Shown: positions 7,101 to 32,749 of the stretch, piece after piece
Layout of the letters: every line of letters starts with the position of its first letter
Numbering within the stretch: position 1 is the stretch's first letter
Source: Marsupella aquatica
Taxonomy: Eukaryota > Plantae > Marchantiophyta
Assembly (NCBI GenBank): GCA_973895155.1
Contig: OZ316895.1
Location: 6,158,687-6,222,686, forward strand
DNA length: 64,000 nt
Reading direction: 5' to 3'
Program-made: the position numbers and the translations under genes
Notes under the pieces: generated by a model
What the model was told of the DNA's origin: nothing
The model's database searches: none
The model's input: only the letters and a program-made list of their open reading frames with translations

Positions 7101-7904
7101 CCTCAGCACTTTTGGTACCAAGAGATATGTGTGATCTACTCCAAATAATGGCAATAACACCAGAGTAGTCAGGGCCAGGCCCACACTCCACAAATCTCTC
7201 CTCCAAGTGATAATATTCTCTACTTGCTTCTATCAACTCTTGGTTATGATCTCTCTTCTATTACACTATTATGAACACACTCACATCCCCATCTGTGCAT
7301 CTATATAGTATCAATGGATCCGACGACGCAATAATTGTAGTGTACCCTTCTTCCCCAAACTTTTGTGTAAAGACCTGCCTAATATCTACCTTCCTCTTTA
7401 CTATCAACTTAATGCTCATCGTAGAACGCAAATTCAGAATCTGCGGACTCTCATTCAAATCAATATTGACATTCATACTTCTTATTATGCTTACTAACTA
7501 AGAGAGGTTCAGCAACAGAGCCGTCCCTACTTGATCACAGGTTCGTGGACATTATATCTATGGTATTGGCGGCATAGCCGACCTTTCCAGATTCAAAGCT
7601 CCATCTTCAAGGTACTCGAGTGGTGGCAGTGCCTTCCATGACCAAGAATCAAGAAACTTAGAACCCTTCCACCATAGAAACCAACGGCATAGCCATTTCG
7701 TTAGTCTTAGAACCAATGTTCAAGCATTCCTCCAATACAAATGCACAAAATATGCGCTCTATGCACTCTCTATTCTCACACTCATACACTTGAAATGCTG
7801 GAAAATAGACTCTCCCGGGAGGGCGAGCCTCCCTCTAATTTATAGTTGGAGCCATGCCACGCTGTCTCTTTACAAGAGTATCCTAGAAGATACTATAATT
7901 AACT

Positions 7905-8075
7905 AGAACTTACTAGAATTTACTTTTTACCACGGTAAATTCTAGAACTCACTTTTTACCATGGTAAATTCTAGAAGTTACCGAAATTTACCTTTTTACT
8001 ATGATAAATTCTAGAAGTTACTATTTACTACGGTAGATCTTAAAAATTACCAAGATTTATAATTTTACTTAGTAA
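7905..8075. repeat. Degenerate ~30-35-bp tandem repeat (ttttaccayggtaaattctagaa)
   Basis: Four to five copies visible, e.g. near 7925, 7953, 7994 and 8024. Confidence 0.75.
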
Positions 8076-8560
8076 AACCTAAAATCCCTTTTTTATCACA
8101 AAAACCTCTACTTTTATATTTTCACACAAAATCAAGTTATTCTCCATATAATATAATTCTCTTACGACAACGAGATCCAATGAAATAAATCCCCTCTTCT
8201 TTGAAAAACAGGAGAGAATGTTTAGGGACAATGAAAGTAATTAATAGGTTCAAAAAACAATTTCATAGGGATTAATGGGGAGTAATAAAAGTTATTATTT
8301 TAAGATTTTGGCTTAAAAAAATTATAAACATGTGGCACATCTTATGTTTTGGAAGCCGAGATCGCTTTTATGGAAGAAGTAAATGAAGGAGTATTAGAGA
8401 CGGAATTTTAATCCAAAACAAAGGGTATAAAAGAGTCATATCAATTTTTTTAAAACAACAGAGAATGATGTATAAATATTTTACTTTCCAAAAAAAAATG
8501 CACAAACCCGTGTATGTGGGTCTAGTTGGGATGTGTTCGTAACATTGAGCTTTAATTTCC

Positions 8561-8673
8561 AACCATTTTTCTATCAATTGGACTCTACGAAAAGGCAAAA
8601 TTTGTTTGTTGCCAAACAACCATTTTCCTATCAATTGGACTCTACCGAAAGGCAAAATTTGTTTGGTGCCAAA
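8561..8673. repeat. 57-bp tandem duplication
   Basis: aaccatttt..ctatcaattggactctac..aaaggcaaaatttgtttg..gccaaa at 8561 and 8618. Confidence 0.85.
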
Positions 8674-9099
8674 AAATTAGGAAATTTGTTCCATTTTTAT
8701 TAATAGAAATGAAATTAAAATTGGGCAAAGTTGTTTTAAATTTTGAGGTCAGCTTGGATCTGTTAGGGTACTAAGATTTTAACAAAGTATGTCAGCATTG
8801 ATTGTAAATTTAAAAAGCACAAACCTCGGCACAAACATGATCTCAATGATAAAGTTGGCTTAGTCATCTTTGGTGCACAAGCAAGTTTTGCTTGATTGGT
8901 GGGGAATCACACTCCTACAATCCGCTTAGAGTTCTCACATGAAAGTTCAGAAGAGTTGCACACAAGGAAGTTCAAAAAGGTTGTTACTTCAAGCCAGCTA
9001 ACATATATTAATTGTAATTTTTTCATACACACATGCCTCAAGAAGCCCAAGAGGAAGCTTTGTTTGTATTCACTTCAATGCTGGTATACTTTGTTAAAA

Positions 9100-9540
9100 T
9101 CTTAGTATCAATGAAGGTCAAAGTCGGGAATAAAACAATGCAAAGCTAACCATTGATTAGTTTTCCAGAGATAGTCACAAATTGGGACACAACTGCCTTC
9201 TAAGTGGAAGAAGCTTTATTTGTGTCTTTGTGGAAGAATTTGTATTTATATTTGGACTTATCCAGTCAATGCATGGATTGCACTACTACAAATACTCTGA
9301 ATAAGTCTAACTTGATTTGAAGGTTCTTGTATGCTCTTGTTGCGTACTACAGCCTTAGGTCAAATACAAGCTTGAGGGACACCAAAAGGAATGATAGAAT
9401 TGGATACTTTGTCGATCACTATTTTGTGTTAAATAATGACATTCCAACCCATTTTCCACCGTTGATTAAGCAAAGGAACCTGGCTAGTTTGGAATCATCC
9501 AATGGTGAACATCTTGTGAGTTTCTTATAATGGGATGTTT
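9100..9540 (+). mobile_element. Decayed LTR-retrotransposon integrase relic
   Basis: Fragments FPEIVTNWDT (compare PxxIVSDRD) and GEHL..EF-YN-like sequence, spread across frames with stops. Confidence 0.35.
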
Positions 9541-10054
9541 GTCACCATCCTCAAGTTAGCCGATACGCTCTCCCTCCCTTGAACAGCGAGCGGGAGTGGG
9601 CCAGCCAACCAGGACTCAAATCAGGAGGGGTGGAGTGGGGCAAAGTAAGAGACCCAATCCACTGTCAAGGGTTGGAAAGGGTGTTGCACTTACAGTAGAG
9701 GACATGGACGACAATCCAATGGAAAAACCAGGTTAGATGTTCAAGACATTCAAAATATTTCAAGCTAACTATAGCTAGTTTCCTTAATCAACAATGGAAG
9801 AAGATGACAAGAAAACTGGCAAAGTATATATTTAGATTATGCAATTTTCAATAGTTCAAGTTGAGATGAAATTCTCAAATCAATAATAGTAGTTTTTCTT
9901 TTTTTGTTTCCCTTTTTTTCTCTCACTCAACTTGGAATTTTTGAGCTTGCCATCAAGTTCAACACTATTTTTCTTCATTCCCCATTTTTATTAAGAAATG
10001 GGAACAATTAAGTGTTGCAAGGACTTGGGGGGAAATCTTAGTTGAGTTTTTTTT

Positions 10055-10265
10055 TTTACAATGTTATATAATCCCTATAAGTAACCAGCAAGGGCTCTAC
10101 AAAAATATTTGAAGTTTGGGTGATTGGATATTATGCAAAACTAGCTCAATACCAATCAACCAAAACTTCCCAAATATTGTCAAATAATGTCCAATCATCC
10201 AAAACTTCAAATATTTGTATAGAGCCCTTTAATGGTTGATTATAGGGATTATATAACATTGTAAA
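10055..10265. mobile_element. Palindromic MITE-like fold-back element (~210 bp)
   Basis: tttacaatgttatataatccctataa pairs perfectly with ttatagggattatataacattgtaaa. Pairing continues inward (agggctcta..aaatatttgaagttt / aaacttcaaatattt..tagagccct). Confidence 0.8.
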
Positions 10266-12993
10266 TGGGTGATTGATATTGAGGTAGTTGTGCATAATAT
10301 CCAATCATCGTGTAGTGGGAGGAGTGTCTCGGTGGATCTGATGGCACCAAAAAAGTTTATGTTTTGATGAAGTGCTACGATTTACCCACACTCCTTCCTC
10401 ATTTTATAAAGGACAAAAGTTAAAGAAAAAAGGGGGATTTAGGGGGGGGGGAACTTGTACTGTAGTGTTTGATGATGATGATTTGGTGGAGAATAGATGT
10501 GGAGGCGTGGAATGGGGGGAAAGTTAATTGCACTCATTCACTTTGGCATGGTATGGTTAAGCAAAATGGGAGACATGCATCTATTTTGGCATGACATGAA
10601 TGCATGGACATTATCTAATTACATTAGTTCCCATTTTTGTCCCACATGTGTTCCCACATGCAAAGTATCTAGATGCTCCAATCATAAACATCCAATGGCT
10701 GAGAATTGAAGTGATACTTTTGTCCCACCTAACTCTTCACACAAGTACTCACACATGATAAGAATCTAGATGGTCCAATTACATAGATCCAATAATTAAG
10801 AATTTATGAGATGACATGGATTTTTCCCTGAATTTTCAAAATTACAAGAGTCTCTAACTAGACCCGTAAATAATACTTATGCAAAAAATCCTCAAATAAA
10901 AAGTAACCACAAAATCATGAATAAAGTTTTTTCGACTTGTGCGCCAAAGAACAAATTGCACCGCCACCAAAAAAATGATTGGACACCAAACCAAAAAAAT
11001 GCCCCATCAAGGAAACTGCACCCATGTGAACCTATAAATTTTGGGATGAGATTTTCACACAATGTACTTTATTTTTACATGCAAAAAAAAAACACCCTAG
11101 CATTTAGGGACCAATGGGGAGATAGCCAATTATTACATTTAATTATGGTTATATGTACATGGATTTCACTAGACATTGTATTGTATAGTATACATGTAGC
11201 TCTTTGGTATGGAATCAATCATGCATTATTTCTACAACAGGTTGTGGTTACTTGGGTGGTTACCTAGTTTAGGAAGGCAGATAAGCCAAGTAGCCTGACC
11301 ATTCATTTGTGTTCGGTTTATTGGCATGGATAATGTATATTGCCAAAGAATAAATAAGTGAGGTTACAATTATTGCTTGGTGAGAACAAGCAATTATTGT
11401 ATCAAAAATGTATCAATTAAATTAAAAACCCTTTGTATATTTTTTAGTAACTTAGTAAGTACCTTGCTGATTCATATTTTTGTGAAAATTAGATATTTAA
11501 ATATCTTTAGTACAGTCAAGTTTTGGTTGTAATTAGTAGCCCAATGATATTAAAACGATTAACCTTCTCTTGTTTGCATCTCTTTCTAAACATCCAACCA
11601 ATGATTCCCCAGGGTAGAGTCCAAACCATCTTCTACTCCTACTAATGTTCATAGAAGAGGATGATTTATATGAATGAAGGTGATATTGGATTTCCTTCAT
11701 CTACACTTAGTATTGAGAAATTCCTCAGTCCGACTATGGTACCACTTAGAGTGGATAAACTTGAAGTTGAAAGGTATGAAAGACTGAATTTGCAGACCTG
11801 GGGTGATGATCAAACCTGCTCTACAATTAACCATTGCAATAAGAAAAGGAAAATGAGAAGATTCCACTCATATATCCTTGGAGTTCTTAGCTAGTGGGAT
11901 CCAGAATGAGATGAGTTCATCCTTGACTCATAAGAACAATCAAGAAATTATGGTGAAGGTAGCTTTTGATGATTCAGCATGTTATAGATAAATTAACCAT
12001 AATTTGTTACATTGTGCACTTGGGGGCATTATTTCCCGCCTTGGAGAATCTCAGAGCCATTTCTGCAACTATGATAGCTCTTGGGCCATAACAACACCAC
12101 TACCCTCTAGCCCTAATACTTTCATTGACACAAAAATCCACAGAGGGTCCTTTGCTATTGATGATGAATTTTTATTTGTTGAACCTATGATGGAAGAAAA
12201 TGACAAAGTTCATAGGCAATCAAGGCCTAATTAACTTGAGTATGAGGTATTGAGATTTCATTTTGAGACATGTGATTATGTAGCAAATATCAAACTTAGA
12301 GGGAGGACGACCTACTCAGGTTCAAATTTATTTAGCTCAGTTATATTGGCATGACGGTTGTTTGTTATCATCCAAAGCTGAGGAGAGAGCACTCCTCATA
12401 GCTAAATGTTTGAACCAAAGGTTACTAATGAGACTCACTACAAAGTTGCTTGCTTCTACTAACAATTTTACTTCATTGTTAAACCTATGAAGATACCTGA
12501 GATATTAAAACATGAAGAACCAACTAGGAAACCAGATAGAGATGATGCAAGAGAGCCAAAGAGCTCATATTAAGTGCCCTATCTTTGAGGTACCATCCCC
12601 ACAATACAATCAATTTTTACAGTATCAACCACTTTGATTCTTGACTACATGATGATTCTAAAGAACCCAAATGAAGGCTAATTTACCAATGCCTCCATCT
12701 CATACATCTCTTGTACATACATAATTTGAATTCACTAGATGCTGCCATTTCTGAGGGAGATATTATTCTAGTCAAGGATCATGTTGATGTCTCCACTGAG
12801 ATTGACAAGGATATTTTAGCTCAGTTCAACTCACCAAATGTGCATGTTGATTGATGTGACACGGGTAACGTGTCACTTGACCAAACCCAGGTCGTAGATT
12901 AGGACTTATACGGTCATTAGGACCGTAGCCATAGCGTAGAATAGCACGTATAGCCGTCAGTTGCCATTATGATTAGATTAGGAGTAGGTTAAG

Positions 12994-15722
12994 ATGACCG
13001 AATAATTACGAGTTCAGGAAAGGGATTATTACGCACGACCGAGGTATGGTGGCGGCAGCGGAGTAAAAATCAGTTAGAAGAATCACGCTTGGACCGAGGC
13101 GCCGACTTCAGCTCTTTATCAATGACCGAACGGCCTGGCCTTCTCACGCTCGGGCTCATCCTGGCACCTCCATAAGAGAGGAGCCGATGGCACTGCGGGC
13201 CATTTGCTCATGTCTACCTTTTTGGAATTTGCGGACGTTGCCATCCACTCGCCTTTCTGATTGAATCAAATTGACCTTTACGAGGAGATTATCGAGGGAG
13301 AAGAGCGGATTGTGGTGAGATTTAGTCGGGACGAGCGAGGCCTCCAAGAGACCAAGGACCAGCCGGGTGGGAACGCGGACTCAACGAACCGGACTACGAG
13401 GTTAGTATGACCCTCACAGCCTTGGGATTTTGGACCTTGTTTGGCGAGGTAGGTGCTAAGTTCTCCGAGACTTACTAGTACTCTTGTCCCGAGAAAACCG
13501 CTTACAAACGAAGGTACGCGAAGCTGGTAACCAAGGTAGCACTGGTTAATTGCGAAAGGACAGCCATCACCAGGGATTCTAGCTACAACGAGCTGCGAGA
13601 CTACATCACCGAACTATATCTCAGCGAGGAAGAGCTTAGATCGGTAGCAGAGGCAATTCTTGAGGTCCAAGTGAAGTTCTTTAAGCTAAAAGGCAGCCAG
13701 CGGCTTACTCCAGCGGAGTTCGACAAGATTCCGGGGTACCTAGACCAGCAGATCGCAGCCGAAAAGCACCAAGAAGATATCAGCAGACAACGGGAAGCGG
13801 CGCGTAATCTTACGTTCCTCGGGGAAAGCTCCAACGCCTTCAACTGGGATATGGCTACCCCAATACCACCAGTGCCTCAGCCGATGACCACTGGCGTACC
13901 ACCAAGCCGGTCCCAAGTCCGTTCAGTGATCAACACTGAGTGTTCTTCGGGTTCCGAGCGAGTTAGTCCGCAACTCGAACAGCGTCCTCGTAAGCGGCCA
14001 AGGACTACGACGGCCCCAGAAGCAACAACGCGAACCAACACCGCGCCTGTACCTGCCTTGACAAACCCCCCGACCAACCAGACCCGACGACCCCCGGATA
14101 ACCTGAAGTCCAACCTGTTACAGATAATCCGCGTCCCCGAAGTAGTCTGGATCGCAATCAAGAAACTCGAGCATGCGGACTATGTTAAGGAGCATCAGTT
14201 GGAGCAGTTCGCTCACTTGCTATGGAGACCGTGCGCCGCCCCGCCGAAGGAGATTTGTGAGTTCATCTCCAATTTCAACACTGATGCGTCGACCACCAAG
14301 GTTTCGGGGCAGGCCTTATCACTCACGGAGCATCGGTTAACGCAAATCTTCTGCCTACCAACCGGGCCGGTGCCGGTTGAAATCCGAATTCGGGATAAGG
14401 AGTATACACCGCGGCACTTCAAACCCGAGGGTAAGACGGACAACGGATACAAGCAGGGGGCGTGCACCAACTTAACCTGTATGGAGTGGCTTAACTTCAT
14501 ACGGACTACCCTACACATGATTGAGCCATGATCCGAGATTTCCCTCTGCACGATCGTGCAGGTGGAACAGTACAAACGGCAAAACTGGGCCCAATTCTTC
14601 TACCAAAGATTCTCGGGGGAGCTGAAGTGGGCTCAAGGTGGTATGGCTATTGGAGGGAAGACTTACTTGGGAAGTCATATCGCCATTATCCTCGCCTGGT
14701 ACAAGGCACGGCGGGAGGCCAGAGGAAAGAATATGGCCACCTCAGCCCCGACTAATGTCACCCCCGTCGAGGAGGAGGCAACCCCAAGCACGCGGACTAC
14801 CGTCCCTCAAGAAAACCCCGAGCCGGAAGCCCCGACCAATACTCCGCCACCTCCTCCTGTGGAAATTCCGCCGCCCCCTTCCGTTGAGCCTCCGCTACCC
14901 GCGGTACAACCACCCCCAATCCCTCCACCACCTGAAGAAACCTTCCCCTCCCCAGCACTGACTACGGAGGAGCTCATTGCTCCACCCGAGGAACCACCAG
15001 TGCCCGAGAGGATGGAGGACTACCAAGTAGCCCCGGGGACCATGGCCTACGACCTGGTCCAGAAGTTTAGCCAGACTATGTCTGGGGAGCTGGCGACATA
15101 CATCGGACAACAAGTCTCGGCGTACTTTCAGCCAGCCTTCTTCATGTTAGAGCACGAACCACGGATCGTAAGCCGCTTGGAAGAAGAACTCATGGCGAAG
15201 GGGAATGAGATCGGGCGTCTCCAGATGCTGGTAGAGCACCTTGAGGAGGAGGCAACGACCCGCCGCGAGGAGTTAGTCCGCACCGTCGAACAGAGGGACG
15301 GACTAACCCAGGAGTTAAGCGGAGCGCAGACCAAACTCAAGAAGCTGGATGACACCGTGCTTCAATTACGCTCAGAATCTTCGGCTCGGGTTACCAGCCT
15401 GACCGACCTCAACAAACAATTCCTACAGGCAGCGCAGCAGGTGGCTAGTCTCTCCGCCGAACGAGATAAATTGCTAGCGCAGGACCAGGTCCATCGCGAC
15501 TCCATCGACCAGCTCAACTTGGAGGTAGCGCGGCTCCAGACCGAGGCTGATGAAGCTGCAAACGAGGCGGAGGAAGTAGTACGGGACAACAAGGCTTTGC
15601 AGGACCACGTTACCCTGCTCGTCCTCCAGCGGGGAAAACCAGGGCCCACCTCTAATCAAGGCGGCTTGAGGTCTCGCCCCGACAAGGGGACCAGCCCTGG
15701 TCCAACCACTGCACACACATAA
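12994..15722 (+). pseudogene. LTR-embedded accessory ORF, 5' LTR copy (transposon eORF-like central domain, Pro-rich region, coiled coil)
   Basis: ORFs 13671-14531 and 14556-15722 share a frame and are split only by TGA at 14529, which is CGA in the other LTR. That frame is open from 13479. A decayed N-terminal extension can be traced back to ATG 12994. Confidence 0.85.
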
Positions 15723-15980
15723 GGGGTGGTTAGCGAAGGACGAAAGTAGGCGCCGCGCGAGGCGGTTAAGTCAGCGGCATCTTTTGGTGAGGTATAACGA
15801 CAGAATAGCTATCATTAGGCACCGATTAGCGGCAGTAGGAAGAATTAGGGCCGGTCAGTTAGGATCAGCCACTGTAGGATGGAGTCCATCAACGGACTAG
15901 AGTTTGTCAGTAGGCTTGGCCGCTGCCATCCCGATCGGCACACTCGTAGTCGACGGTCAACCAGTCAGTGCAGCGCAGCC

Positions 15981-16038
15981 AGTTAGTCAGCAGGTAGTTA
16001 GTCAGTAGGTAGTATCCCGGAAGGTAGTATCCTCCGGT
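15981..16038 (+). repeat. 15-bp period repeats upstream of the LTR TATA-like box
   Basis: agttagtcagcaggt, agttagtcagtaggt, agtatcccggaaggt, agtatcctccggt. Repeated at ~25899-25956. Confidence 0.75.
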
Positions 16039-16056
16039 TCTCTTCCGCAATTGTAG

Positions 16057-16091
16057 TATTTAGGCTTCCCCTTCCGCTATGGAAGGGGGAG
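16057..16091 (+). promoter_or_regulatory. Putative LTR promoter: TATTTA followed by stem-loop ccccttcc-gctat-ggaagggg
   Basis: TATA-like motif at 16057-16062 with an adjacent hairpin, identical at 25975-26009. Promoter role is inferred, not shown. Confidence 0.45.
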
Positions 16092-16726
16092 AAGGCTTAG
16101 TTATCTCAGCAGAAGAAAGGCGAGGCACAGGGAGTCCCGGCCTGAGTAGGGTCAGAGCGCACCAAGGAGTGTCAAGAGCCAGAGTCGAGCTTGCTGGGCA
16201 AGTGCGAGGTAGGGCCTCGTAGAGACTAGGCATCGACTGCCGTTGGGCCTGCTGACCCCCTTTGAAGTCGAGTCAACCATGTAAACTGATGCTTCGCTGA
16301 GTAAATGTAGTCTTTTCCCTCTAATGTTTTTGAGAGTAACTGGTGTTGTGTGTATGCTTTGTCTGGGCAAAGGCGCCATTTTAAGGGACGTATCGGGTGC
16401 GGACTAATGGTAGGGATTGCGACTCATTGCATGTCACAAGGTCCTGTCACGTCGATGGCTTGAAAAGCCCCAAGCCGGGAGTTAGTCCGCGTCACTAACT
16501 GAGGGAATATTCCAGCGGTGGAAAACAAATATACCTATGACAAGTACGAATTATGCAAGTGTTATACCAGTAAGTATATCGGCTTAGCCTGACTTAGGGC
16601 TATTAAAGGTCACTACACACCTCCTTGCCCAAACCCTCACCCCTACTGGTGGTCGAGGTCGCACCATGACACTAAACTGGATTTAAGGCCCAGGTTAGGG
16701 GCGCGACATACGGCGACCGGTTTTTT

Positions 16727-16744
16727 TGGCGCTAGATGGAGGGG
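16727..16744 (+). other. Primer-binding site, probably tRNA-Asn
   Basis: tggcgctagatggagggg matches 17/18 the complement of the plant tRNA-Asn(GUU) 3' end as I recall it (TGGCGCTAGAAGGAGGGG). It lies 18 nt downstream of the LTR end. Confidence 0.75.
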
Positions 16745-16823
16745 GCACTCATTTTGCCTTACGAGTGGAGCCGTGTAGTGAGCTAGTAACCTTTGATTTC
16801 ATACTCGATGTGTAGGAAGGGGC

Positions 16824-19800
16824 ATGCCCCTTACCCGGTCACGTTCTGCGTATTTACAACAACCGGATGGAGCACCAAGTTTGGAAGAGAATACCGCATC
16901 CGGGAGCTCGGCTTCCGAAGCGGGATCGCGTGTTGTGATGGGTACCCAAGCACCAACGGCGGGAGGAACTCCACCGGTTCCACCAGCCCCGCAGGTACCA
17001 GGTGCGTTGCGGCCCCCTGCGGCTCAGAACGTGTCGCAGCGATCCCGGTTTCACTATCGACCCTTTAAGGGACGACCCACGGACGACCCCGATGAATGGA
17101 TAGCTGAGTTCGAGGCCACGGCCAAGGCGAATGGCGAGGAAGCCATTAAGCTAACTATCCTCCCAGGCGTGCTACGAGGAGAAGCGCGCCCGTGGTATAA
17201 CTTACAACCCCCTGGTTTCACATGGGGCCAGTTCCAAACGGCGTTCTTGCAAGAATTTTGGCCCGTGGGGATCGAATCTCGGGCCCTGTCAAAAATCGGA
17301 CGAATGCAAATGGGTAAGCATGACTCACTTCGCAAATTTCTGCAGCGGTTCCAGAAGGTTGCCGCCAAGATTCGGCCTAAGCCAGATGACTCTCTGCTGA
17401 GGAAATGGTTCATCAATGCGCTACCCCAGAGGATGGCGTTCTCGGTGCTAGAGAAGAAGACCACCACTCTACAACAAGCAATTGATAGTGCCGAATCCTT
17501 CAGGGAATCGCACTACGCCTCTCAGCTTAATAGAAGGACCAAGCATAAGAAGAGCAGGAGGTATCATACCTTTAGCAACTCCGACTCTGAATACGATGAG
17601 AAGAAAAGGAAGAAGAAACGACGACATAAGAAGAAGGGCCGGACAAGCTCTTCGTCAGACTCTGATTCAGAGTCTAGTGATTCCCTGTCCAGTAGCCCGA
17701 TGTCAACTGGCTCATCCTCCAGCGAGACCGAGTCAGAGGCTCGTAACCACCGAAGGAAGAAGGGATCACGGTCAGATACGGGTAAACATAAACCGCAAGC
17801 CAAAGTCGTCACCACGGACCAAAGGCCGCTGAGGTAGAAAAGCTGAACGAAATCACAGACCAGCTGAAGGCACTGTCGGTGCACTTGGCGGAAAAACCTC
17901 CGGACAAGAAGAAACCACCGGAAATCCGAGCGCATGCTTGGTGCTCCAAGTGTTATCAGTCGGGACATGTGGTGCAAGAATGTCTAAGATGGAACACTTG
18001 CGTGCACCAGATGGAGTTGGAGCCCGGACAGTCCGAGCCAGAGGGATGCACGATGGAGTACTTCTTCGAGGATCCAGGTGAGGCGGTGTTCCAGATGAGT
18101 ATGACGGGACCTCGCACCCTACGCGGCCACAATCCAGGGTTCCATACCCCTTATCCGTACCCAGTGAATGGGCGTGGCCCCCAGATGACCAGCAATCCAA
18201 GTATCCCACCTAAACCCGGAGTTTGGCGGACCCCGGTTTGCTATAATTGCGAGAAACCTGGTCACTTTGCCCGAGAGTGCACGGCGCAAAGGAAGCAAGG
18301 GGATGGGAGAGCGCTTCCATTGTGCCAGGTCTGTTGAACCGAAGCACATTCCACGTCAAACTGCCCCTTGGTGCTAGCCGCGAAGGCCGGCGCCGTGAGA
18401 GCTGCTCAACCTGCGGCCCCACCAACTACGGATGCAGTAGTACAAATGGTAACAATGGAATGGCAGGACGACTCCACCGAGTGGATCAACCTCATAGAAG
18501 CAGTCGAGCAAACAGGAATGCACGCGGACGACGAGTGCTATCGCGTTTCTACCCGATCATCCCGCAAGAAGGATAAGTACAAAGAACGAGCTCGGAAGGA
18601 TACCCAGCCGGAAGAGGCGGTCACGGATAAGAATAGTCCCATGGAACCAGACGAGCTGGAAGACTATCAGCGGGATAACCCGAAGTTATTCTACCCGTGA
18701 GTAGAGGAACTGGTCAAAAAGCAATTGGAAGCCTACGAGGCCCAAGAGCACGAGAAAGCCATTAAGAAGGATATTGCCGATGCTAAGGCGGCCGAAGAAG
18801 CCGAGGAAGCTGAGACTGCCTTGCAAACTGAAGGCAAGGGAGCAGAAGCATTAAAATCTGCGACCCACCGTCTAACCAATACGACATCGAAAAGGATGTC
18901 CAGAACTGTGCAGCCACAGCCACTGTCAGACAACTATTGCAGGATAACCCAAAGTATCGGCAACAACTCAAAGAGATGCTAATAGGAAAGAGGAGGCGAC
19001 GGCTACCTCGGGTAAGCACCTTAGCCGACTGTATGATGATTTACCAGGACTTAGGAGCGCCGGAAGTCTCTATCAAGATAGCAGGCTGTACTGTTCAGTT
19101 TGTACCAATAGACGGCGGGTCCGGTGTAAACATTATGACGGAGGACACTTCCGTAAGGTTGGGATATACGTCTTATCAACCCACGATGCGTGCCATTCGG
19201 TTAGCAAACAGCGCCAGGATCATGCCACTGGGGACGTTAACCAAGATATCCACGTGGATTGGAGGCCTCGAGTTTTTTCTAAATTACCTGGTGATGCGAC
19301 CAGTCTGACTCTCTTCTTATCCAGTACTGCTGGGCAGACCCTGGTTATACGGTGCCCGAGTTGTTACCGACTGGGGAAGGAAGGAATTACGATTCGGTAA
19401 CCCGACTAAGACGGTGTCCTGGAAGGAAGAAGACTATCAGGGCGAAACGCCCCAGGGACCCGAAGAATATGACTCGGAGGAGGACATCTCAGAAGAAGAG
19501 GTGAATATGGTGGAGTTAATCTCTCACCTGGATGAAGAGGAAGTCTTCGGGGTAAATGCCGTCCGAGAAGCCCATATTCTGAACCAGCCCAGACCAGCGG
19601 CCCAAATCGAAGCACCCGGGAGGCCAGAAGGAGATGATGCGGCAACGGGCGGAGCATTCCCTGGCAGGGTGAGCCCTACGAAGGCAGTTGGCCGGCTGGC
19701 CTTACCCGGTATACCCGAGGAAAACGCTACTCAGACCGCCACTCCTCCCACAAAGAAAAAGGTTACCTGGAGCCCCAAGATTCCGTCCGTAATAGAGGAA

Positions 19801-22800
19801 CCCAAGAAGCTCCCAAAGGAGCAGCCGACAGTCTGGGAACCTGTGGCCTACGATGGCACCAGACTAGAGGAATTGGAAGCTCATCTTGACCGGGCCACCA
19901 AAGACCATGTGGATGTAATCCGCAAGGAACACTATGGCAAGTACACCACAAAGAGGGAGAGAACATTCAACGTCGATTATGGCCTACGAGCGCCAGAGGA
20001 AAAGGCCATCCAAGAACTCCTATCGGAATATGAGGACGTCTTCGCATGGAGTCACCAAGACTTAACCAGGATTTCATCGGCCTATGGCGAACACGTCATC
20101 GATCTAAACTTGGGTGCTCATGCCGTCCGAGAAAGGCAACGAAGACTAAACCCAAGACATTCCATCTTGGTAAAGGAGGAGTTGGATCAACTGATCGTGG
20201 CGGACATCATCTACCCCGTCTTATCTAGCGAATGGGTGTCCCCCATTGTGGTGGTTCCTAAGAAGGTAGGGCATGATGGTAAACCCAAAATTCGAATATG
20301 CCAAGACTATCGGAAGCTCAACGACGCTACTCGGAAAGACCATTACCCGCTTCCTTACACGGACATGGTCCTTGACATGGTAGCCCGAAATGAGGTGTAC
20401 ACGTTCCTAGATGGATATTCGGGTTATAACCAGATTTGGATCAGACTATCGGACCAACTCAAAACCACATTCATAACTGAGTGGGGAACCTACGCGTTCC
20501 GGCGGATGCCCTTTGGCTTATGCAATGCCCCGGCTATGTTCCAGCGAATCATTATGAATATTTTTCATGACTTCTTACAAGAATTTTTGGAGGTGTTCAT
20601 AGACGATTTTGCCATCTTCGGAACAATCGGCCAGCACCCAGAACACCTGAGGCGGACTTTGGAGCGGTGCTGAGAAGTAGGGTTGAAATTACACCCGGGC
20701 AAATGCTTCTTTGGGGTAACGGAAGGAGTGCTACTGGGACACCGAGTGTCCAAACGGGGGATCGAGGTGGACCAGGAGAAGGTGGCCGCGTGGATGAACG
20801 TCCCTTACCCAGCGGACCAGAAGGCGGTGCGATCCTTCCTAGGCTGCGTAGGGTACTACCGACGATTCATTCAGGATTTTGCTAAAATAGCCCTACCCCT
20901 TACGGAAATGATGAAGCAAGACGCGGTCATAGCAATGACTCCCCGTCGAAAATCAGCCTTTGACGAACTAAAAAACCAGCTAACGATGGCTCTGATTCTG
21001 ACTACCCCCGATTGGAACAAGGAGTTCCATGTGTATGTCGACGTGTCTGGGTTCTGCATCGGCTCAGTCCTAAGCCAACTGGACGACGGAAAACGTGACC
21101 ACCCCATTTACTTTGCGAGCCGACAACTGTTTGCCGCAGAGAAAAACTACTCGCCCACCAATCGGGAGGCCTTGGGAATCATCTACTCGTGTAAAAAGTT
21201 TCGCCATTATCTATTGGGATATAAGGTAGTATTCCACATTGACCATGATAGCCTGAAGTACATGGTAAACAAAGCAGACTTAACGGGGAGAATAGCCCGT
21301 TGGGTCCTGCTGCTCCAAGAATTTAACTATGAAGTCAGGGTGCGACCAGGGAAAGCTCACGTAAATGCGGACTTCTTTTCGAGGATCAAAGGCGAATCGA
21401 ACAACGCATCTGTCGATGATGCATTCCCTGATGAAGAGTTATTCCGCGTAGAAACAGACCAACCAACGTGGTACGGGGACCTAATCACCTTCCTCTCGAC
21501 AGCCCGCATTCCAAGTAACATAAACCAAGAGGCCGCGTCGGTCTTTCTGCGCAAGGCTGCACCATACATGATGATCCGCGGACATCTGCATAAGGAAGGC
21601 GTCGATGGGAAGATCCGCAGATGCCTAGATTATAACGAGACGATCATTGTCATGCGAGCTATGCACGAGGAAGAGGCAGGAGGACACTTCACCCCGGTCA
21701 CCACGGCTCACAAAATCTTGGACACAGGTTATTGGTGGCCTACGCTTCATCACGACGTAACTCATTTTATCCGAGGTTGTGACTTGTGTCAGCGTGCAGG
21801 CAAACCTCGCAGGTCGGGTAATCATCCTCTTACCCCGATCTTTCCCCTTGCCCCGTTTGAGAAATGGGGCATCGATTATATCGGACCATTCACTCCTGTA
21901 ACCCGAGATCGGCGTTGCCGGTACATTCTTCTGGCTATCGACTACTCAACTAAATGGGTTGAGGCCTGGGCAACGGTCAAAGATGATGCGGCCACCACCG
22001 CTAGGTTCCTGTACAAACAGATCTTCACCCGCTTTGGACCTCCCTTGGAATTAGTCAGCGACCGCGGGACTCACTTTTTGAACGAAACGGTGGAAAAACT
22101 GACTGACCGTTACCTCGTCAAGCACAGGAAGACTACTCCTTATCATCCCAAATGTAACGGACTAGCCGAGCGGGCTAATGGCATTGTAGGGAAAATCCTC
22201 AACAAAACCGTGGCAGCCCATAAAACAGACTGGGACGACAAGCTTTTCGCGGCGGTCTATTCGTACAACTTGGCATTTAAGACTACTACAAACCATAGTC
22301 CGTATTTCTTGGTATTCGGGCAACACGCGCTAGTACCCGTCGAGTTCAAGGTCGAGACCCCGCGGGTGTGCATCCGCCCCAGACTATCGGAGGCTGGTAG
22401 TTCGTCCGATCGAGCATATAAGATCGACAGGCTAGAAGAACAGAGATTGTGGGCATCGTGACGCGTAACTGCCAAGCAAGAAGCAACGAAGAAACAGCAC
22501 GACAAGGGACTGCGCCAGGTGGACATCACCACGGGAGATCTTGTCCTTCTGTACGACAGTAGGTACATGTACTTTCTAGGAAAGTTACACACACGCTGGC
22601 AAGGACCTTTCGTTGTCCAGCAGATGTACCCGAACGGATCCTTACAGCTATCAACGTACGTCGGCGACCTCTTTCCCAATCGAGTTAGTTACGATCGTGT
22701 GAAGAGGTACTTCCACCAGGACAATGAGCGTAATGATGTTCGCGAGGACGCTTCACACTTAAGTGGGGAGCTATGTGACACGGGTAACGTGTCACTTGAC

Positions 22801-22821
22801 CGAACCCAGGTCATAGATTAG
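16824..22821 (+). pseudogene. gag-pol polyprotein (Gag, three CCHC knuckles, aspartic protease, RT, RNase H, integrase), disrupted
   Basis: Gag: DPDEWIAEFE..ARPWY. Knuckles: CSKCYQSGHVVQEC, CYNCEKPGHFAREC, CQVC*TEAHSTSNC. PR: IDGGSGVNI. RT: RICQDYRKLN, FIDD. RH: DVSG..YFASRQL. INT: GGHF..H..CDLC, WGIDYIGP, VSDRG, AERAN, GPF. Two frame changes (~17820, ~18850) and five in-frame TGA stops. Confidence 0.95.
22761..22770 (+). other. Polypurine tract
   Basis: aagtggggag lies 3 nt before the TG start of the 3' LTR. Confidence 0.75.
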
Positions 22822-25800
22822 GACTTATACGGTCATTAGGACCGTAGCCATAGCATAGAATAGCACATATAGCCGTCAGTTGCCATTATGATTAGATTAG
22901 GAGTAGGTTAAGATGACCGAATAATTACGAGTTCAGGAAAGGGATTATTACGCACGACCGAGGTACGGTGGCGGCAGCGGAGTAAAAATCAGTTAGAAGA
23001 ATCATGCTTGGACCGAGGCGCCGACTTCAGCTCTTTATCAATGACCGAATGGCCTGGCCTTCTCACGCTCGGGCTCATCCTGGCACCTCCATAAGAGAGG
23101 AGCCGATGGCACTGCGGGCCATTTGCTCATGTCTACCTTTTTGGAATTCGTGGACGTTGCCATCCACTCGCGTTTCAGATTGAATCAAATCGACCTTTAT
23201 GAGGAGATTATCGAGGGAGAAGAGTGGAATGTGGCGAGATTTAGTCGGGACGAGCGAGGCCTCCAAGAGAACAAGGACCAGCCGGGTGGGAACGCAGACT
23301 CAACGAACCGGACTAAGAGGTTAGTATGACCCTCACAGCCTTGGGATTTTGGACCTTGTTTGGCAAGGTAGGTGCTAAGTTCTCCGAGACTTACTAGTAC
23401 TCCTGTCCCGAGAAAGCCGCTTACAAACGAAGGTACGCAAAGTTGGTAACCAAGGTAGCACTGGTTAATTGCGAAAGGACAGCCATCACCAGGGATTCTA
23501 GCTACAACGAGCTGCGAGACTACATCACCGAACTATATCTCAGCGAGGAAGGGCTTAGATCGGTAGCAGAGGCAATTCTTGAGGTCCCAACGAAGTTCTT
23601 TAAGTTGAAAGGCAGCCAGCGGCTTACTCCAGCGGAGTTCGACAAGATTCCGGGGTACCTAGACCAGCAGATCGCAGCCGAAAAGCACCAAGAAGATATC
23701 AGCAGACAACGGGAAGCGGCGCGTAATCTTACGTTCCTCGGGGAAAGCTCCAACGCCTTCAACTGGGATATGGCTACCCCGATACCACCAGTGCATCAGC
23801 CGATGACCACTGGCATACCACCGAGCCGGTCCCAAGTCCGTTCAGTGATCAACACTGAGTGTTCTTCGGGTTCCGAGCGAGTTAGTCCGCAACTCGAACA
23901 GCGTCCTCGTAAGCGGCCAAGGACTACGACGGCCCCCGAAGCAACAACGCGAACCAACACCGCGCCTGCACCTGCCCCGACAAACCCCCCGACCAACCAG
24001 ACCCGACGACCCCCGGATAACCCGAAGTCCAACCTGTTACAGGTAATCCGTGTCCCCGAAGTAGTCTGGATCGCAATCAAGAAACTCGAGCATGCGGACT
24101 ATGTTAAGGAGCATCAGTTGGAGCAGTTCGCTCACTTGCTATGGAGACCGTGCGCCGCCCCGCCGAAGGAGATTTGTGAGTTCATCTCCAATTTTGACAC
24201 TGATGCGTCGACCACCAAGGTTACGGGGCAGGCCTTATCACTCACAGAGCATCGGTTAACGCAAATCTTTTGCCTACCAACCGAGCCGGTGCCGGTTGAA
24301 ATCCAAATTCGGGATAAGGAGTATACACCGCGGCACTTCAAACCCGAGGGTAAGACGGACAACGGATACAAGCAGGGGGCGTGCACCAACTTAACCTGTA
24401 TGGAGCGACTTAACTTCATACGGACTACCCTACACATGATTGAGCCACGATCCGAGATTTCCCTCTGCACGATCGTGCAGGTGGAACAGTACAAACGGCA
24501 AAACTGGGCCCAATTCTTCTACCAAAGATTCTCGGGGAGCTAAAGCGGGCTCAGGGTGGTATGGCTATTGGAGGGAAGACTTACTTGGGAAGTCATATCG
24601 CCATTATCCTCGCCTGGTACAAGGCACGGCGGGAGGCCAGAGGAAAGAATATGGCCACCTCAGCCCCGACTAATGTCACCCCCGTCGAGGAGGAGGCAAC
24701 CCCGAGCACGCGGACTACCGTCCCTCGGGCAAACCCCGAGCCGGAAGCCCCGACCAATACTCCGCCACCTCCTCCTGTGGAAATTCCGCCGCCCCCTTCC
24801 GTTGAGCCTCCGCTACCCGCGGTACAACCACCCCCAATCCCTCCACCACCTGAAGAAACCTTCCCCTCCCCAGCACTGACTACGGAGGAGCTCGTTGCTC
24901 CACCCGAGGAACCACCGGTGCCCGAGAGGATGGAGGACTACCAAGTAGCCCCGGGGACCATGGCCTACGACCTGGTCCAGAAGTTTAGCCAGACTATGTC
25001 TGGGGAGCTGGCGACATACATCGGACAACAAGTCTCGGCGTACTTTCAGCCAGCCTTCTTCATGTTAGAGCACCAACCACGGATCGTAAGCCGCTTGGAA
25101 GAAGAACTCATGGCGAAGGGGAATGAGATCGGGCGTCTCCAGATGCTGGTAGAGCACCTCGAGGAGGAGGCAACGACCCACCGCGAGGAGTTAGTCCGCA
25201 CCATCGAACAGAGGGACAGACTAACCCAGGAGTTAAGCAGAGCGCAGGCCGAACTCAAGAAGCTGGATGACACCGTGCTTCAATTACGCTCAGAATCTTC
25301 GGCTCGGGTTACCAGCCTGACCGACCTCAACAAACAATTCCTACAGGCAGCGCAGCAGGTGGCTAGTCTCTCCGCCGAACGAGATAAATTGCTAGCGCAG
25401 GACCAGGTCCATCGCGACTCCATCGACCAGCTCAACTTGGAGGTAGCGTGGCTCCAGACCGAGGCCGATGAAGCTGCAAACGAGGCGGAGGAAGCAGTAC
25501 GGGACAACAAGGCTTTGCAGGACCGCGTTACCCTGCTCGTCCTCCAGCGGGGAAAACCAGGGCCCACCTCTGATCAAGGCGGCTCGAGGTCTTGCCCCGA
25601 CAAGGGGACCAGCCCTGGTCCAACCACTGCACACACGTAAGGGGTGGTTAGCGAAGGACGAAAGCAGGCGCCGCGCGAGGCGGTTAAGTCAGCGGCATCT
25701 TTTGGTGAGGTGTAACGACAGAATAGCTGTCATTAGGCACCGATTAGCGGCAGTAGGAAGAATTAGGGCCGGTCAGTTAGGATCAGCCAACGTAGGATGG

Positions 25801-26623
25801 AGTCCATCAACGGACTAGAGTTTGTCAGTAGGCTTGGCCGCTGCCATCCCGGTCGGCACACTCGTAGTCGACGGTCAACCAGTCAGTGCAGCGCAGCCAG
25901 TTAGTCAGCAGGTAGTTAGTCAGTAGGTAGTATCCTGGAAGGTAGTATCCTCCGGTTCTCTTCCGCAATTGTAGTATTTAGGCTTCCCCTTCCGCTATGG
26001 AAGGGGGAGAAGGCTTAGTTATCTCAGCAGAAGAAAGGCGAGGCACGGGGAGTCCCGGCCTGAGTAGGGTCAGAGCGCACCAAGGAGTGAGAGCCAGAGT
26101 CGAGCTTGCTGGGCAAGTGCGAGGCAGGGCCTCGTAGAGACTGGGCATCGACTGCCGTTGGGCCTGCTGACCCCCTTTGAAGTCGAGTCAACCATGTAAA
26201 GTGATGCTTCGCTGAGTAAATGTAGTCTTTTCCCTCTAATGTTTTTGAGAGTAACTGGTGTTGTGTGTATGCTTTGTCTGGGCAAAGGCGCCATATTAAG
26301 GGACGTACCGGGTGCGGACTAATGGTAGGGATTGCCACTCATTGCATGTCACAAGGTCCTGTCACGTCGATGGCTTGAAAAGCCCCAAGCCGGGAGTTAG
26401 TCCGCATCACTAACTGAGGGAATATTCCAGCGGTGGAAAACAAATATACCTATGACAAGTACGAATTATGCAAGTGTTATACCAGTAAGTATATCGGCTT
26501 AGCCCGACTTAGGGCTATTAAAGGTCACTACACACCTCCTTGCCCAAACCCTCACCCCTACTGGTGGTCGAGGTCGCACCATGACACTAAACTGGATTTA
26601 AGGCCCAGGTTAGGGGCGCAACA
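22774..26623 (+). repeat. 3' LTR (3850 bp)
   Basis: Starts tgtgacacggg, ends gcgcaaca, followed by TSD attga. Confidence 0.96.
22913..25640 (+). pseudogene. LTR-embedded accessory ORF, 3' LTR copy
   Basis: ORFs 23443-24543 and 24561-25640 are separated by a 1-bp deletion (G4 at 24534-24537 versus G5 at 14615-14619). The protein is nearly identical to the 5' copy. Confidence 0.85.
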
Positions 26624-27280
26624 ATTGAGATAGAAAAGTACTCTACAACTCACTAATTTATTACAGTGTGAATATATATATAGAGGAAATAAGTGAAGAA
26701 ATTAATTGATTGTAATTGCTTTCAAAACCATGAAAACAGTATTTAAAGTATCAATCCCGGTATCAATCCATTCTTAATTGTTCATAGCCCTGTTCATAGA
26801 AGGAACAAATGCCAAGTTTTATGAAGTTAAATTATATTTTCTGTTCTCTATTGCAAACTACAAAGTTAATGTCACCTAAATCCTTGAATGTACATCCACT
26901 TCAGTCATCTGAGACAATTGAGTATGATGTTTCTCGGAACAAATGTAAACAAACATGTGATATAATGACCCTAGCTGAGCATTCAGAGGGCACAAGGTTG
27001 CGATATATAGTGATTGTTCTTAGAGTAACTAGAAAGTATTAAAACAATAAAATTATCAAACGGTACCCAAATTTTCTGGAGTAATTTTGAGAAATATCCA
27101 AATGTTTGGGTTCACTTTTGAGAAAGATGCATGATTGAGCAACTGAGAATAGACTAAGTCTACACTAGGAAAAAAGAAGTACATTGCAAACACTAGCACA
27201 TACAACATTTTGCCTTATTACTTTTGTTGAGGCTTCACAAGCCTGCATTTCAATTTTTGCAAGCCACAGAGTTTTTGCCA

Positions 27281-27520
27281 GGGGGGGGTCACTATATGAA
27301 GGGTCATACATGACGTGCGACGGTTTGGGTCATTTATGACCCCCCTAAATCACTTTCTATAAATTTGTACGGCACCAATCATGTGATGACACGTATGCAT
27401 TTTGTAATTAAACAATCCTATATTTCCATAGAAGACTTAATAAGTGTTCTGCCAAAACCATTTAAATGGCCCTATACTTCGTCGCACATGATATGTCACT
27501 TCCATGGAAGTGACCCCCCC
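27281..27520. mobile_element. MITE-like element with short TIRs (ggggggtcact...agtgacccccc); partial diverged relative at ~4190-4400
   Basis: Inverted G/C-rich termini. Shares ccatt.aaatgg.cctata...gtcacttccayggaagtgac with 4338-4396. Confidence 0.5.
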
Positions 27521-27839: not shown

Positions 27840-28345
27840 GCATATCATGAGTATCCCATAGTACTCCAAATATTATAGATAATAGAAGACTAATGAAGAT
27901 ACCAAATTGTACCCAAAATGCCCCATAGCACCCTAGAGTACCCCAAAGAACTCTACATTATCGAAGGGTAGCCAAAATGTCTCTGAATATTTAGAGTGTC
28001 TCAGAGTACCCCAAATTAATATCATAAAATAGACTGTAGTACGTTCTTTAGTTTACCAAAGGGAAAATGACCCCTAATATCATTGAGTAACCTATAGGAA
28101 CCCACATATCATAGAGTACCGTGGAGGACTTAGATTACCAAAGGGTACCCAAAATGCCCCTAATATCATAGATTATCCCATAGTACCCTGGAGTACCCAA
28201 ATATCATAGAGTACCCAAGTGTACTCTTGATTAGCAAAGGGTACCCAAAATGTCACCAAATATCACAGAGTACTCTAGACTACCAAAGGATACCCAATAT
28301 GTCACCAAATATCATAGAGTATCCTATCCTATTACCCATAGTACC
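27840..28345. repeat. Degenerate minisatellite-like array (atatcatagagtaccc / ccaaagggtacccaaaatg)
   Basis: The motifs recur many times with irregular spacing. Confidence 0.75.
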
Positions 28346-29060
28346 CAGCGTAAGTCCGCAAAGTGTCCATAAGCAAATGCTATCCAAAAATGTTCTTGGT
28401 TGAGGAAAGGAAAAACCCACTAACAATTACGAAACATCATAAAACTTGATGTTGTAACAGAGAGTTAACCTGTGTTGATAGATTACCCTATTATATATTA
28501 TTTAAAATTATATATATATACATTTATTTAATGTTGTTCGCTACATATGTAATGGTATCATTCATAACTCCACTCCTCATCAATGTATCTTGACAAAAGT
28601 AATTCTCATTGGCTCCATGTTTGCGGGGTGTATATATTTTTATTCTTTGTTAAATTGTACCTCCAATAATAAATTTCACATCATGCATGTCAGTCAAGTG
28701 TGTGTAAAAAATGTACGCATCTCAAGTGTGTGTAAAAAATGACACATCTCAATCATTTGCACCTCATTCCAAAGTACTTACAAATATTTGCGCATATTTG
28801 AAGTGCTTGAGAAAACTTTGTGGTTGCCTCTTAAACTTGGCCGTTCAAAAACTTTGTAACTTAGAAAGAAAATAAAAGCACACACACATCCATTAATTGT
28901 TGAGGCATTTTATTTCCCATTCCTTTTATTAGGTGTAACTTTTGTCATTTTTTCCTATAATATTAGGTGTAACTTTTGTCATCACCTTACATTACTAATC
29001 TCCTCCGAAATGAGTTCAAAATGAGTTCAAAATGTTTTGTAGTAGATTAGTAATGTGTTC

Positions 29061-29296
29061 AAATGAGTTCAAAATGCTCTAAGATACCAAAAATTAAAGG
29101 GATTCAAAAATGAATTAAAAAATATATAATACAACAAGGATGAGAATAATTTAAAACTTTTTTTCAAGTGATAGAAACTAAAGTCAATGAGATTACAAAT
29201 TAAGAGGGCTACCAAAATGAATTCAAAATGCTCTAAGATACCAAAAATTAAAGGGATTCAAAAATGAATTAAAAACTATATAATACAAGAAGGATG
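29061..29296. repeat. Two ~80-bp direct repeats, period ~155 bp
   Basis: aaatga.ttcaaaatgctctaagataccaaaaattaaagggattcaaaaatgaattaaaaa at 29061 and ~29215. Confidence 0.85.
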
Positions 29297-29508
29297 CCCT
29301 TTGATAAGGCACAAGGCACATGAAAATGACACGAAAAACAAAAATTATGAATAAGGTAAAATCTCAAAAGTGCATTCACTATATAGTACTGCAAATTTCT
29401 TCTCCGTACATCCCACCCAAATGCCGGTTCAACAAAGCTTTAAACAGCTAGGGTGCTCCAGGATCATTAATGCGCCGAGGTCGAGGGTGTCTTTCGTCCT
29501 GAATAAGA

Positions 29509-29705
29509 CCCACAACTCAGCTTTCATGTATCGATGATTGTGTATGACAGCCAGGAAAAATCGGGGAAAAACTTAAACTCGATAAATTCATGACAACAAA
29601 GATCCCGAATAAGCCCCACAACTGAGCTTTCATGTATCGATGATTGTGTATGACAGCCAGGAAAAAGCCGGGAAATACTTAAACTCCATAAATCCATGAC
29701 AACAA
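29509..29705. repeat. ~106-bp tandem duplication downstream of gene A
   Basis: ctttcatgtatcgatgattgtgtatgacagccaggaaaaa at 29521 and 29627. Confidence 0.9.
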
Positions 29706-30170
29706 ATAAGATGTTGCTGTTCAACAGTTGTTTGCATGCTATCTCTCTATGTCATCCATGCACTTACTCGAGATTGAGATTGCTGATTCTTGAACTTTAT
29801 TTGAAGTACACTTGATTTAAATTACCGCCCTTCAATCAAACGCCAGTAGAATCTGAAGAACATTGGGATCTAATGCCCTTATGTAATTTCGTGTTTTACT
29901 GTGAGTTCTCTCTTAATGACGGTAGAAATCTACGTTTCTATATCATCGGACCAGAAGAGCCACATATATGAGACGCTCCACAAAGGGTGGAACGCCATTG
30001 AGAGAACTAAGTCGAAAGACGTCGTAAAACATGGTGCATGTGTATCTAACGAACCTGGACAGTAACTAATCTAGTCTGGAGAGACTCATTGTCTCAGTCT
30101 CGCCTATCAATTCTATGAAGTGGATAGAATCTAGCTTCGATCCAGAGGGCACACAATTTCTAAGAATATT

Positions 30171-32629: not shown

Positions 32630-32749
32630 AGATCTCAGCGAATTTGGGCAAAATGCTGCTCTCGATGGAATTCGTCGACTGATCACTTTCACAATTCGGG
32701 CCCTCGATCACAAGACCTGGAAGCCATGGCACGCAGGATCAAGCATCAG

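Follow-up and report, generated by a model that had tools for sequence, protein, structure and literature searches.

Genes encoded in the U3 region of a long terminal repeat (LTR) are represented among retroviruses by MMTV sag and HIV nef; through reverse transcription a U3 gene of an LTR element, present once in the RNA, becomes doubled in the DNA and is retained in solo LTRs. In plants, LTRs are regarded as non-coding and pipelines for annotation seek extra open reading frames (ORFs) internally, so that genes residing in LTRs are missed or mis-called as host genes. REXdb distinguishes extra ORFs by their 5' or 3' placement within the element (PMC6317226), the extra ORFs of Retand lie between pol and the 3' LTR (PMC11963269), and Retrosat2, with LTRs of more than 3.2 kb, carries its ORF0 upstream of gag-pol (PMC3485330). 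A search of the plant literature returned no report of an LTR-embedded gene, within a scope that left outside most subscription papers and parts of REXdb, which may describe one. Here we describe a Ty3/Gypsy retrotransposon at positions 12855–26623 of a 64,000-nucleotide stretch of Marsupella aquatica DNA (contig OZ316895.1 of assembly GCA_973895155.1, positions 6,158,687 to 6,222,686 of the forward strand; hereafter the window), in which a long accessory gene lies inside each of the two LTRs. We hold with high confidence that this layout is a real property of the element and of the clade to which it belongs.

With the Athila-type elements (OTA) that carry a sense 3' extra ORF (PF20167/PF03078), the element shares a non-chromovirus pol devoid of an archaeal-type RNase H (aRH), a 5-bp target-site duplication (TSD), a spacer before the primer-binding site (PBS) and a sense accessory ORF downstream of pol, with a kinship to PF20167 that runs via a related locus, L009. 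It differs from them in that the ORF lies in each LTR, past the junction between the polypurine tract (PPT) and the initial TG, that pol runs directly into the LTR, and that the host is likely a bryophyte. MMTV sag and HIV nef have in common with it an LTR coding sequence that is duplicated by reverse transcription, but they are unrelated proteins of animal retroviruses with far shorter LTRs. The plant Gypsy elements Retrosat2, RIRE3, RIRE8 and Ogre resemble it in their very long LTRs (>3 kb) and in having an extra ORF; their extra ORFs, however, are internal, and the accessible portions of the reports mention no LTR gene (PMC3485330, PMC6431247).

The window carries one 3.85-kb direct repeat, which is the LTR pair of the element. 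The 5' LTR (12855–16708, 3,854 bp) and the 3' LTR (22774–26623, 3,850 bp), both on the plus strand, are 97.5% identical, start with TG (12855 and 22774), end with CA (16708 and 26623) and make up 55.95% of the 13,769-bp element, as an earlier note on this DNA had estimated (about 56%). They are flanked by the TSD ATTGA at 12850–12854 and 26624–26628 (plus strand). A PBS-like sequence (16727–16744, plus strand), which we take to resemble the 3' end of plant tRNA-Asn, begins 18 nt past the end of the 5' LTR, and a pre-PPT signature (22738–22751) and the PPT itself (22761–22773) occupy positions 22738–22773 of the plus strand, forming with the 3' LTR an LTR-start junction that is conserved in the lineage. 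The gag-pol frame passes through the PPT and terminates 48 nt within the 3' LTR. Between the two LTR copies there are 78 transitions, 15 transversions and two gaps (Kimura two-parameter distance, 0.0247); CG or CHG sites account for 66 of these transitions, a methylation-type decay which suggests that the element was methylated. The present copy is dead, because gag-pol and both copies of the accessory ORF are broken. The LTR opens with a short hairpin-forming inverted repeat, both in the window (12855–12876) and in two of the related loci considered below, L007 (2525–2546) and L035.

The accessory gene occupies positions 13407–15722 in the 5' LTR (plus strand, 771 codons, with stops at 13476 and 14529) and 23326–25640 in the 3' LTR (plus strand, with a stop at 23395 in common with the 5' copy and a frameshift near 24533–24537). 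The earlier note had described one long sense ORF within each LTR, and we see it in both copies. Its lesions were likewise reproduced: in the frame from 13479 to 15722 the 5' copy is interrupted by a single stop, the CGA>TGA change at 14529, and the 1-bp deletion placed at about 24535 of the 3' copy maps as a 1-nt gap near 24533–24537, with no in-frame stop between 23398 and the gap. The unbroken pieces of the ORF measure 350–398 codons, whereas shuffling the LTR 1,000 times gave longest stop-free frames of 155 codons on average and 344 at most. Translation from ATG 13851 yields 623 aa, as previously calculated, and this product would retain the core and the coiled coil. An in-frame ATG is also present at 13407 (23326 in the 3' LTR), and the homologues P0146, P0153 and P0131 align starting from the Met at this position and through the N-terminal domain, a domain that is missing from many other homologues; ATG 13407 is the likely start of the gene. 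Because the stop at codon 24 (13476/23395) is common to both LTRs, the full gene was probably already interrupted in the parent of the insertion, so that intactness at insertion, which the earlier note had stated for the part open from 13479 to 15722 in the two-LTR consensus, holds from 13479 onwards and not for the likely full gene. The protein consists, in order, of the N-terminal domain, a Pro/Thr linker, a folded core (14088–14726, plus strand), a Pro-rich linker and the coiled coil. The differences between the two LTR copies within the ORF look neutral (21 of 57 are synonymous, against an expected fraction of 0.35; p 0.78).

Several features around the ORF bear on its placement and expression. 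A 66-codon upstream ORF (13210–13410, plus strand), interrupted by a stop in the 5' LTR and uninterrupted in the 3' LTR (23129–23329), ends in a stop that overlaps ATG 13407; it has no Pfam match and might serve reinitiation, be a small gene in its own right or result from an old frameshift. A simple pattern search revealed no splice-acceptor-like tract ahead of the accessory ORF. Downstream, short degenerate repeats (AGTTAG, AGTCAG, GGTAGTAT) and a TATA-like TATTTA at 16057 fall within 15960–16062 of the plus strand and would likely represent the promoter of the genomic RNA. The position of this box downstream of the ORF agrees with the original proposal that the ORF is probably in U3, a placement that we keep as tentative, based as it is on the TATA-like box and a T/G-rich tract. 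The non-coding zones flanking the ORF, 12855–13104 and 15605–16104, share an abundance of certain plus-strand words (AGTAGG, ATTAGG, GATTAG, AGAATAGC) and look like one U3 split by the ORF, with a local alignment between them that is non-significant. We rejected the idea that a remnant of an inner LTR start follows the ORF (near 15793/25711), as 84 of 500 shuffles scored equally high.

Contigs from four sequencing runs (two studies, two organisms, one possibly the source sample) were compared with the element. In all four runs the summed contig depth, which is not a copy number, was at least as high over the LTR ORF as at the LTR 3' end and several-fold higher than over gag-pol; for X1 it amounted to 26,034–50,690, 22,409 and 3,691–15,960, respectively. 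Skip joints had depths of at most 521 among the best-supported 15 of 144, and in one contig 13390 is followed directly by 15683, with the ORF left out. The LTR location of the ORF is supported as a family trait. A single contig bridges the 3' junction with zero differences, two contigs end within the 5' LTR after 28–29 letters, too few to satisfy the bridging rule, and contigs of a similar flank copy run from 12854 into the right flank without the element (joint 12854 to 26646), representing an empty site from which the whole 13.8 kb is absent.

The distribution of the layout was explored among 47 metagenome loci retrieved with the pol alignment. A profile of the core matched five of them at an independent E-value below 0.01, BLASTP and tblastn tied in L001, L002, L005, L008, L012 and L035, and HHalign found the window core and the ORFs of related loci to be homologous (96.7%, E 3e-10). 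Of the 15 loci scanned, 11 contain the 14-nt signature with PPT and TG behind it, each of them a single time. In nine loci (L001, L002, L005, L006, L007, L008, L012, L013 and L035, the last being a near copy of L007), as in the window, the signature follows pol immediately, and in eight of these nine a homologous ORF lies downstream of the LTR-start junction, while the sequence of L013 stops 78 bp past it. L001 and L002 also include the LTR end and the PBS; because the LTR ends repeat the TG start in inverted orientation (over 9 bp and 7 bp), the TG is the true LTR start in both. In L001, TGTGGGAGC follows the PPT and GCTCCCACA precedes the PBS, with the ORF starting 470 bp into the LTR. L005 and L007 extend 3,652 and 3,568 bp past the LTR start and include the whole ORF with no second junction or PBS in that span. 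The in-LTR relatives possess open ORFs of 632–853 codons that share 31–45% protein identity with one another.

In L003 and L009 the signature is downstream of the ORF, which is therefore internal, as in the Athila-type layout. L003, a closed-circle contig (1–10852) with an internal accessory ORF of 745 codons and an LTR of about 1 kb, has a second purine tract directly after pol, without a following TG; this two-PPT layout is reported for Athila4 and Calypso (PMC2829016), and L003 is a good model of the presumed ancestral layout. L042 and L004 are similar to L003 but incomplete, and the remaining 34 loci are short, distant or without a visible ORF. Since L009 falls outside the clade that holds both LTR-type groups in the tree, the internal position is likely ancestral, and the LTR layout possibly arose once. 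The earlier suggestion that the family moved its accessory gene into the LTR fits this contrast of LTR and internal relatives, except that "family" is too narrow a term for what is a wider clade. A switch to the upstream, Athila-type PPT is disfavoured, as the signature in the window corresponds to the downstream PPT of L003 and L009 and is absent at the upstream one. Other candidates were also discarded: a TGGCGCC in L012 sits within the ORF and is not a PBS, and two split copies in Calypogeia that are nearly identical (CAM6101869/70 and CAM6101879/80) stand in opposite order and do not count as an LTR pair. A search for related loci that used the single ORF as query gave 34 pattern matches, none of which was confirmed.

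A search of 1.84 billion representative proteins with the accessory ORF yielded 24 matches at E<=0.001. Together with a confident predicted fold, these homologues bear out the view that the LTR ORF is a real gene. Calypogeia proteins account for six of the 15 matches that were looked up, and two more Calypogeia members are six to seven accession numbers away from pol relatives, on contigs of equal length. The homologues P0132 and P0156–P0160 from Calypogeia fissa are annotated as host "unnamed protein product", and some are near pol proteins in accession number. A word-indexed protein search with the read-through ORF as query gave no match among 7,987 candidates, a search confined to longer forms of 1,587–4,530 aa found none, and a PDB sequence search gave no real match. 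The core, modelled with X at the stop (predicted local distance difference test, pLDDT, 92.5), had DNA-bound VANC21 as its best Foldseek match (probability 0.75, TMq 0.51). With VIA-align, VANC21 was the sole PDB chain at Z>=5 among 48,161 (Z 8.2, root-mean-square deviation 4.4, 189 residues aligned; next Z 2.7), the core being aligned to residues 295–534 of the structures 9LNJ/9LNK over 189–191 positions. An ORF model for L001, built from a separate alignment (pLDDT 78.5), again had VANC21 as the sole match (Z 6.5, root-mean-square deviation 4.3, 200 aligned), and the ESM Atlas leads for the core were DUF1985 (0.90) and PMD (0.89). The ORF of L009 matched PF20167 at E 2.5e-4, under the family cut-off.

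PF20167 is the domain of a sunflower Athila 3' ORF (PMC11728184), VANCs contain DUF1985 and bind short element-specific motifs (PMC5735166), and PMD and DUF1985 are structurally similar, PMD-A domains being encoded by retrotransposons (10.1101/2024.09.27.615353; PMC13547354). The accessory ORF is accordingly predicted, from these models, to be PF20167/DUF1985-like, with a fold in the VANC/DUF1985/PMD group. This fold class is already known from retrotransposons; the ORF family and its LTR location are new. The VANC21/DUF1985 proteins of VANDAL Mutator-like elements (MULEs) and the PMD proteins share with it the predicted core fold, a coiled coil and an enriched element-specific motif. They differ in belonging to a DNA transposon (VANDAL/MULE) rather than a retrotransposon, in a sequence identity of 8–11% with no Pfam match, and in that VANC motifs lie in non-coding tandem repeats whereas those found here are dispersed and partly in coding DNA. 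VANCs are described as dicot-specific (PMC13547354).

The candidate motif is the heptamer TAGTCCG, dispersed over 13390–16489 of the 5' LTR in ten copies on both strands (starting at 13390, 13964, 14176, 14502, 14793, 15274, 15299, 15893, 16400 and 16483). Counting both strands, there are ten copies in the 5' LTR, nine in the 3' LTR, two in the INT end and five in 50 kb of flank, compared with an LTR expectation of 0.5 from dinucleotide shuffles and 1.06 from synonymous, protein-preserving shuffles; any 7-mer attained ten copies in 0 of 400 of the former and 3 of 400 of the latter. In seven of ten ORF-bearing elements (the window, L001, L002, L005, L006, L007 and L009) the element's own top 7-mer was unmatched in 150 shuffles. 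The candidate words in the relatives are of the TCCGGA type and AATTGGA.

To account for these observations we propose, at odds only just better than even, that a bryophyte Athila/Tat-like clade moved a PF20167/DUF1985-like accessory gene into U3 and that this gene encodes a DNA-binding anti-silencing factor; the anti-silencing role taken by itself has a slightly better than even chance. The ORF would have passed the PPT/TG junction from an internal 3' position into U3, perhaps once. As only the 3' U3 is present in the genomic RNA, one RNA copy would give two DNA copies, a solo LTR would keep one, and the plus-strand strong-stop DNA would have to be about 3.85 kb. The protein, with a predicted VANC21-like DNA-binding core followed by a coiled coil, may bind the short motif of its family (TAGTCCG here) and counter DNA methylation, with an effect in trans that would reach family copies and solo LTRs. 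Its expression could be driven by a promoter within the initial 550 bp of the LTR, or translation could reinitiate past the 66-codon ORF that overlaps its start codon. Beyond this, we advance only tentatively, judging it more probably wrong than right, that the LTR of the clade is a self-contained anti-silencing cassette, composed of a VANC-fold gene and its own motifs, and that the "env-like" ORFs of Athila/Tat elements are counterparts of VANC.

A number of observations weigh against this interpretation. The Foldseek E-values are weak (0.3 for the core; 2.2 for the L001 model, where VANC21 ranked ninth), Z scores of 6.5–8.2 are close to the stated best-hit background of the tool, at 8–11% identity, and no Pfam DUF1985 or PMD match was obtained in 23 homologues or in the window ORF. 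Fold likeness alone demonstrates no function, and the PMD proteins MAIN and MAIL1 function in silencing as well as against it. As to the motif, the top 7-mer was weak in L003 (6/150), L012 (71/150) and L042 (147/150); three of eight controls in which no ORF was detected gave 1–2/150 with AT-rich words, although no control reached 0; the enriched word is about equally dense in pol and downstream of pol in L001, L006 and L009; and the enriched words may reflect composition bias. Six of the ten TAGTCCG copies in the window are inside the ORF, whereas VANC motifs occupy non-coding repeats. The single origin of the LTR layout is backed by a support of just 73/74, and the codon-24 stop in both LTRs means that the parent of this copy moved without a full-length protein.

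Among the alternatives, the one that retains the architecture and assigns the protein another role, whether in activating the LTR promoter in trans, in exporting or packaging RNA, or in tethering integration to chromatin targets, is rather unlikely. The PMD/DUF1985 fold is common to host factors and transposon proteins with differing effects (10.1101/2024.09.27.615353); in addition, the coiled coil and the N-terminal domain are unexplained, and LTR motifs would suit a transactivator equally well. On the other side, the sole structural match is a DNA-bound anti-silencing protein, and silencing pressure exists, since the LTR pair shows methylation-type decay. It is improbable that the junction moved by neutral accident, leaving the gene in the LTR and by now dispensable in the family: such an accident would agree with the codon-24 stop of both copies, with the neutral differences between them and with the contig that skips the ORF, but neutrality after insertion is expected of any copy, and the retention of long open ORFs by the in-LTR relatives at 31–45% identity calls for selection after the move.

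It is very improbable that the element results from misassembly, combines short-LTR elements in tandem or by recombination, or is a nested non-autonomous insertion. The 5' junction is not formally bridged, as the contigs stop shortly inside the LTR; against this, the TSD is present on both sides, the PBS and PPT are at the expected places, inner terminal repeats are absent, the junction signature is single, the empty site lacks the entire insertion, and independent loci show the same layout. An envelope-like gene for cell-to-cell transfer would find some backing in the long coiled coil and in an orientation and ancestral position that match the Athila "env-like" ORFs. We regard it as hardly credible, however, as no ORF piece contains a membrane segment or a hydrophobic 19-mer above 1.14 on the Kyte–Doolittle (KD) scale, predicted viral structures gave no match at E<=0.001, and the predicted fold is nuclear-factor-like. 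If the clade does use its LTR as an anti-silencing cassette, each insertion gives two copies of the gene, and every solo LTR stays both a source and a target of the factor; solo-LTR formation, the usual host route to remove element genes, would leave the accessory gene behind. The function of the Athila/Tat extra ORFs is a long-standing question; the VANC-like fold, together with one candidate motif per family, gives direct handles on binding and demethylation, and the relatives with internal and LTR layouts let the move itself be studied.

The gag-pol region (16797–22821, plus strand) encodes GAG, zf-CCHC, protease (PR), reverse transcriptase (RT), RNase H (RH) and integrase (INT) and is disrupted by five stops and two frameshifts. 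The domain order GAG-PR-RT-RH-INT is that of Ty3/Gypsy, with a weak PR match (E 0.032). Pfam gave no match on 22462–22818 after INT, where a chromodomain was sought, and no aRH was found in the PR–RT and RH–INT intervals or downstream of INT, which sets the element apart from the aRH-bearing Tat groups (TatI–III, Ogre and Retand). For Athila, REXdb lists no aRH, no chromodomain and a 5-bp TSD (PMC6317226), traits that the element matches. REXdb also gives a tRNA-Asp or tRNA-Asn PBS for Athila, and the PBS of L001–L003, TGGCGCCGCTGCC, is close to the Athila TGGCGCCGTTGCC. The element departs from a further Athila trait, an internal extra ORF between pol and the 3' LTR, which its relatives L003 and L009 display. 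It does not match Phygy/Selgy (4-bp TSD, tRNA-Trp/tRNA-Ala PBS and no extra ORF), having a 5-bp TSD and a long extra ORF. Because moss Tat-like elements without aRH exist (PMC4408406), the choice between Athila and an aRH-less Tat-like lineage is not settled, and the element is classified as a non-chromovirus Ty3/Gypsy. The best named pol relatives are from Calypogeia fissa (64–69% for most matches) and Riccia (48–53%). In an integrase tree of 25 of 42 rows, with long and distant rows omitted and no reference lineages included (a quick tree took all 42), the window clusters with a Calypogeia protein, L013 and P0005 at a support of 100/100. A liverwort is the likely host. Ahead of their long pol frame, L001 (1909–1913), L002 (3141–3145) and L003 (813–817) each have an in-frame stop, which suggests read-through; because of these stops, one of those in gag-pol of the window may be natural.

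Elsewhere in the window, an inverted repeat (GGGGGGGTCA..TGACCCCCC) at 27282–27345 has a very high contig depth with loose ends at 27326 and is probably the end of a small DNA transposon. Older dispersed repeat pairs (78–79%) and short tandem arrays are present at 522–1428/34472–35362, 39692–40249/61477–62034 and 28048–29706. About 5 kb from the element, the start of a GDSL-lipase-like host gene (31958–32707, minus strand) encodes a signal-like N-terminus and Pro/Ser repeats.

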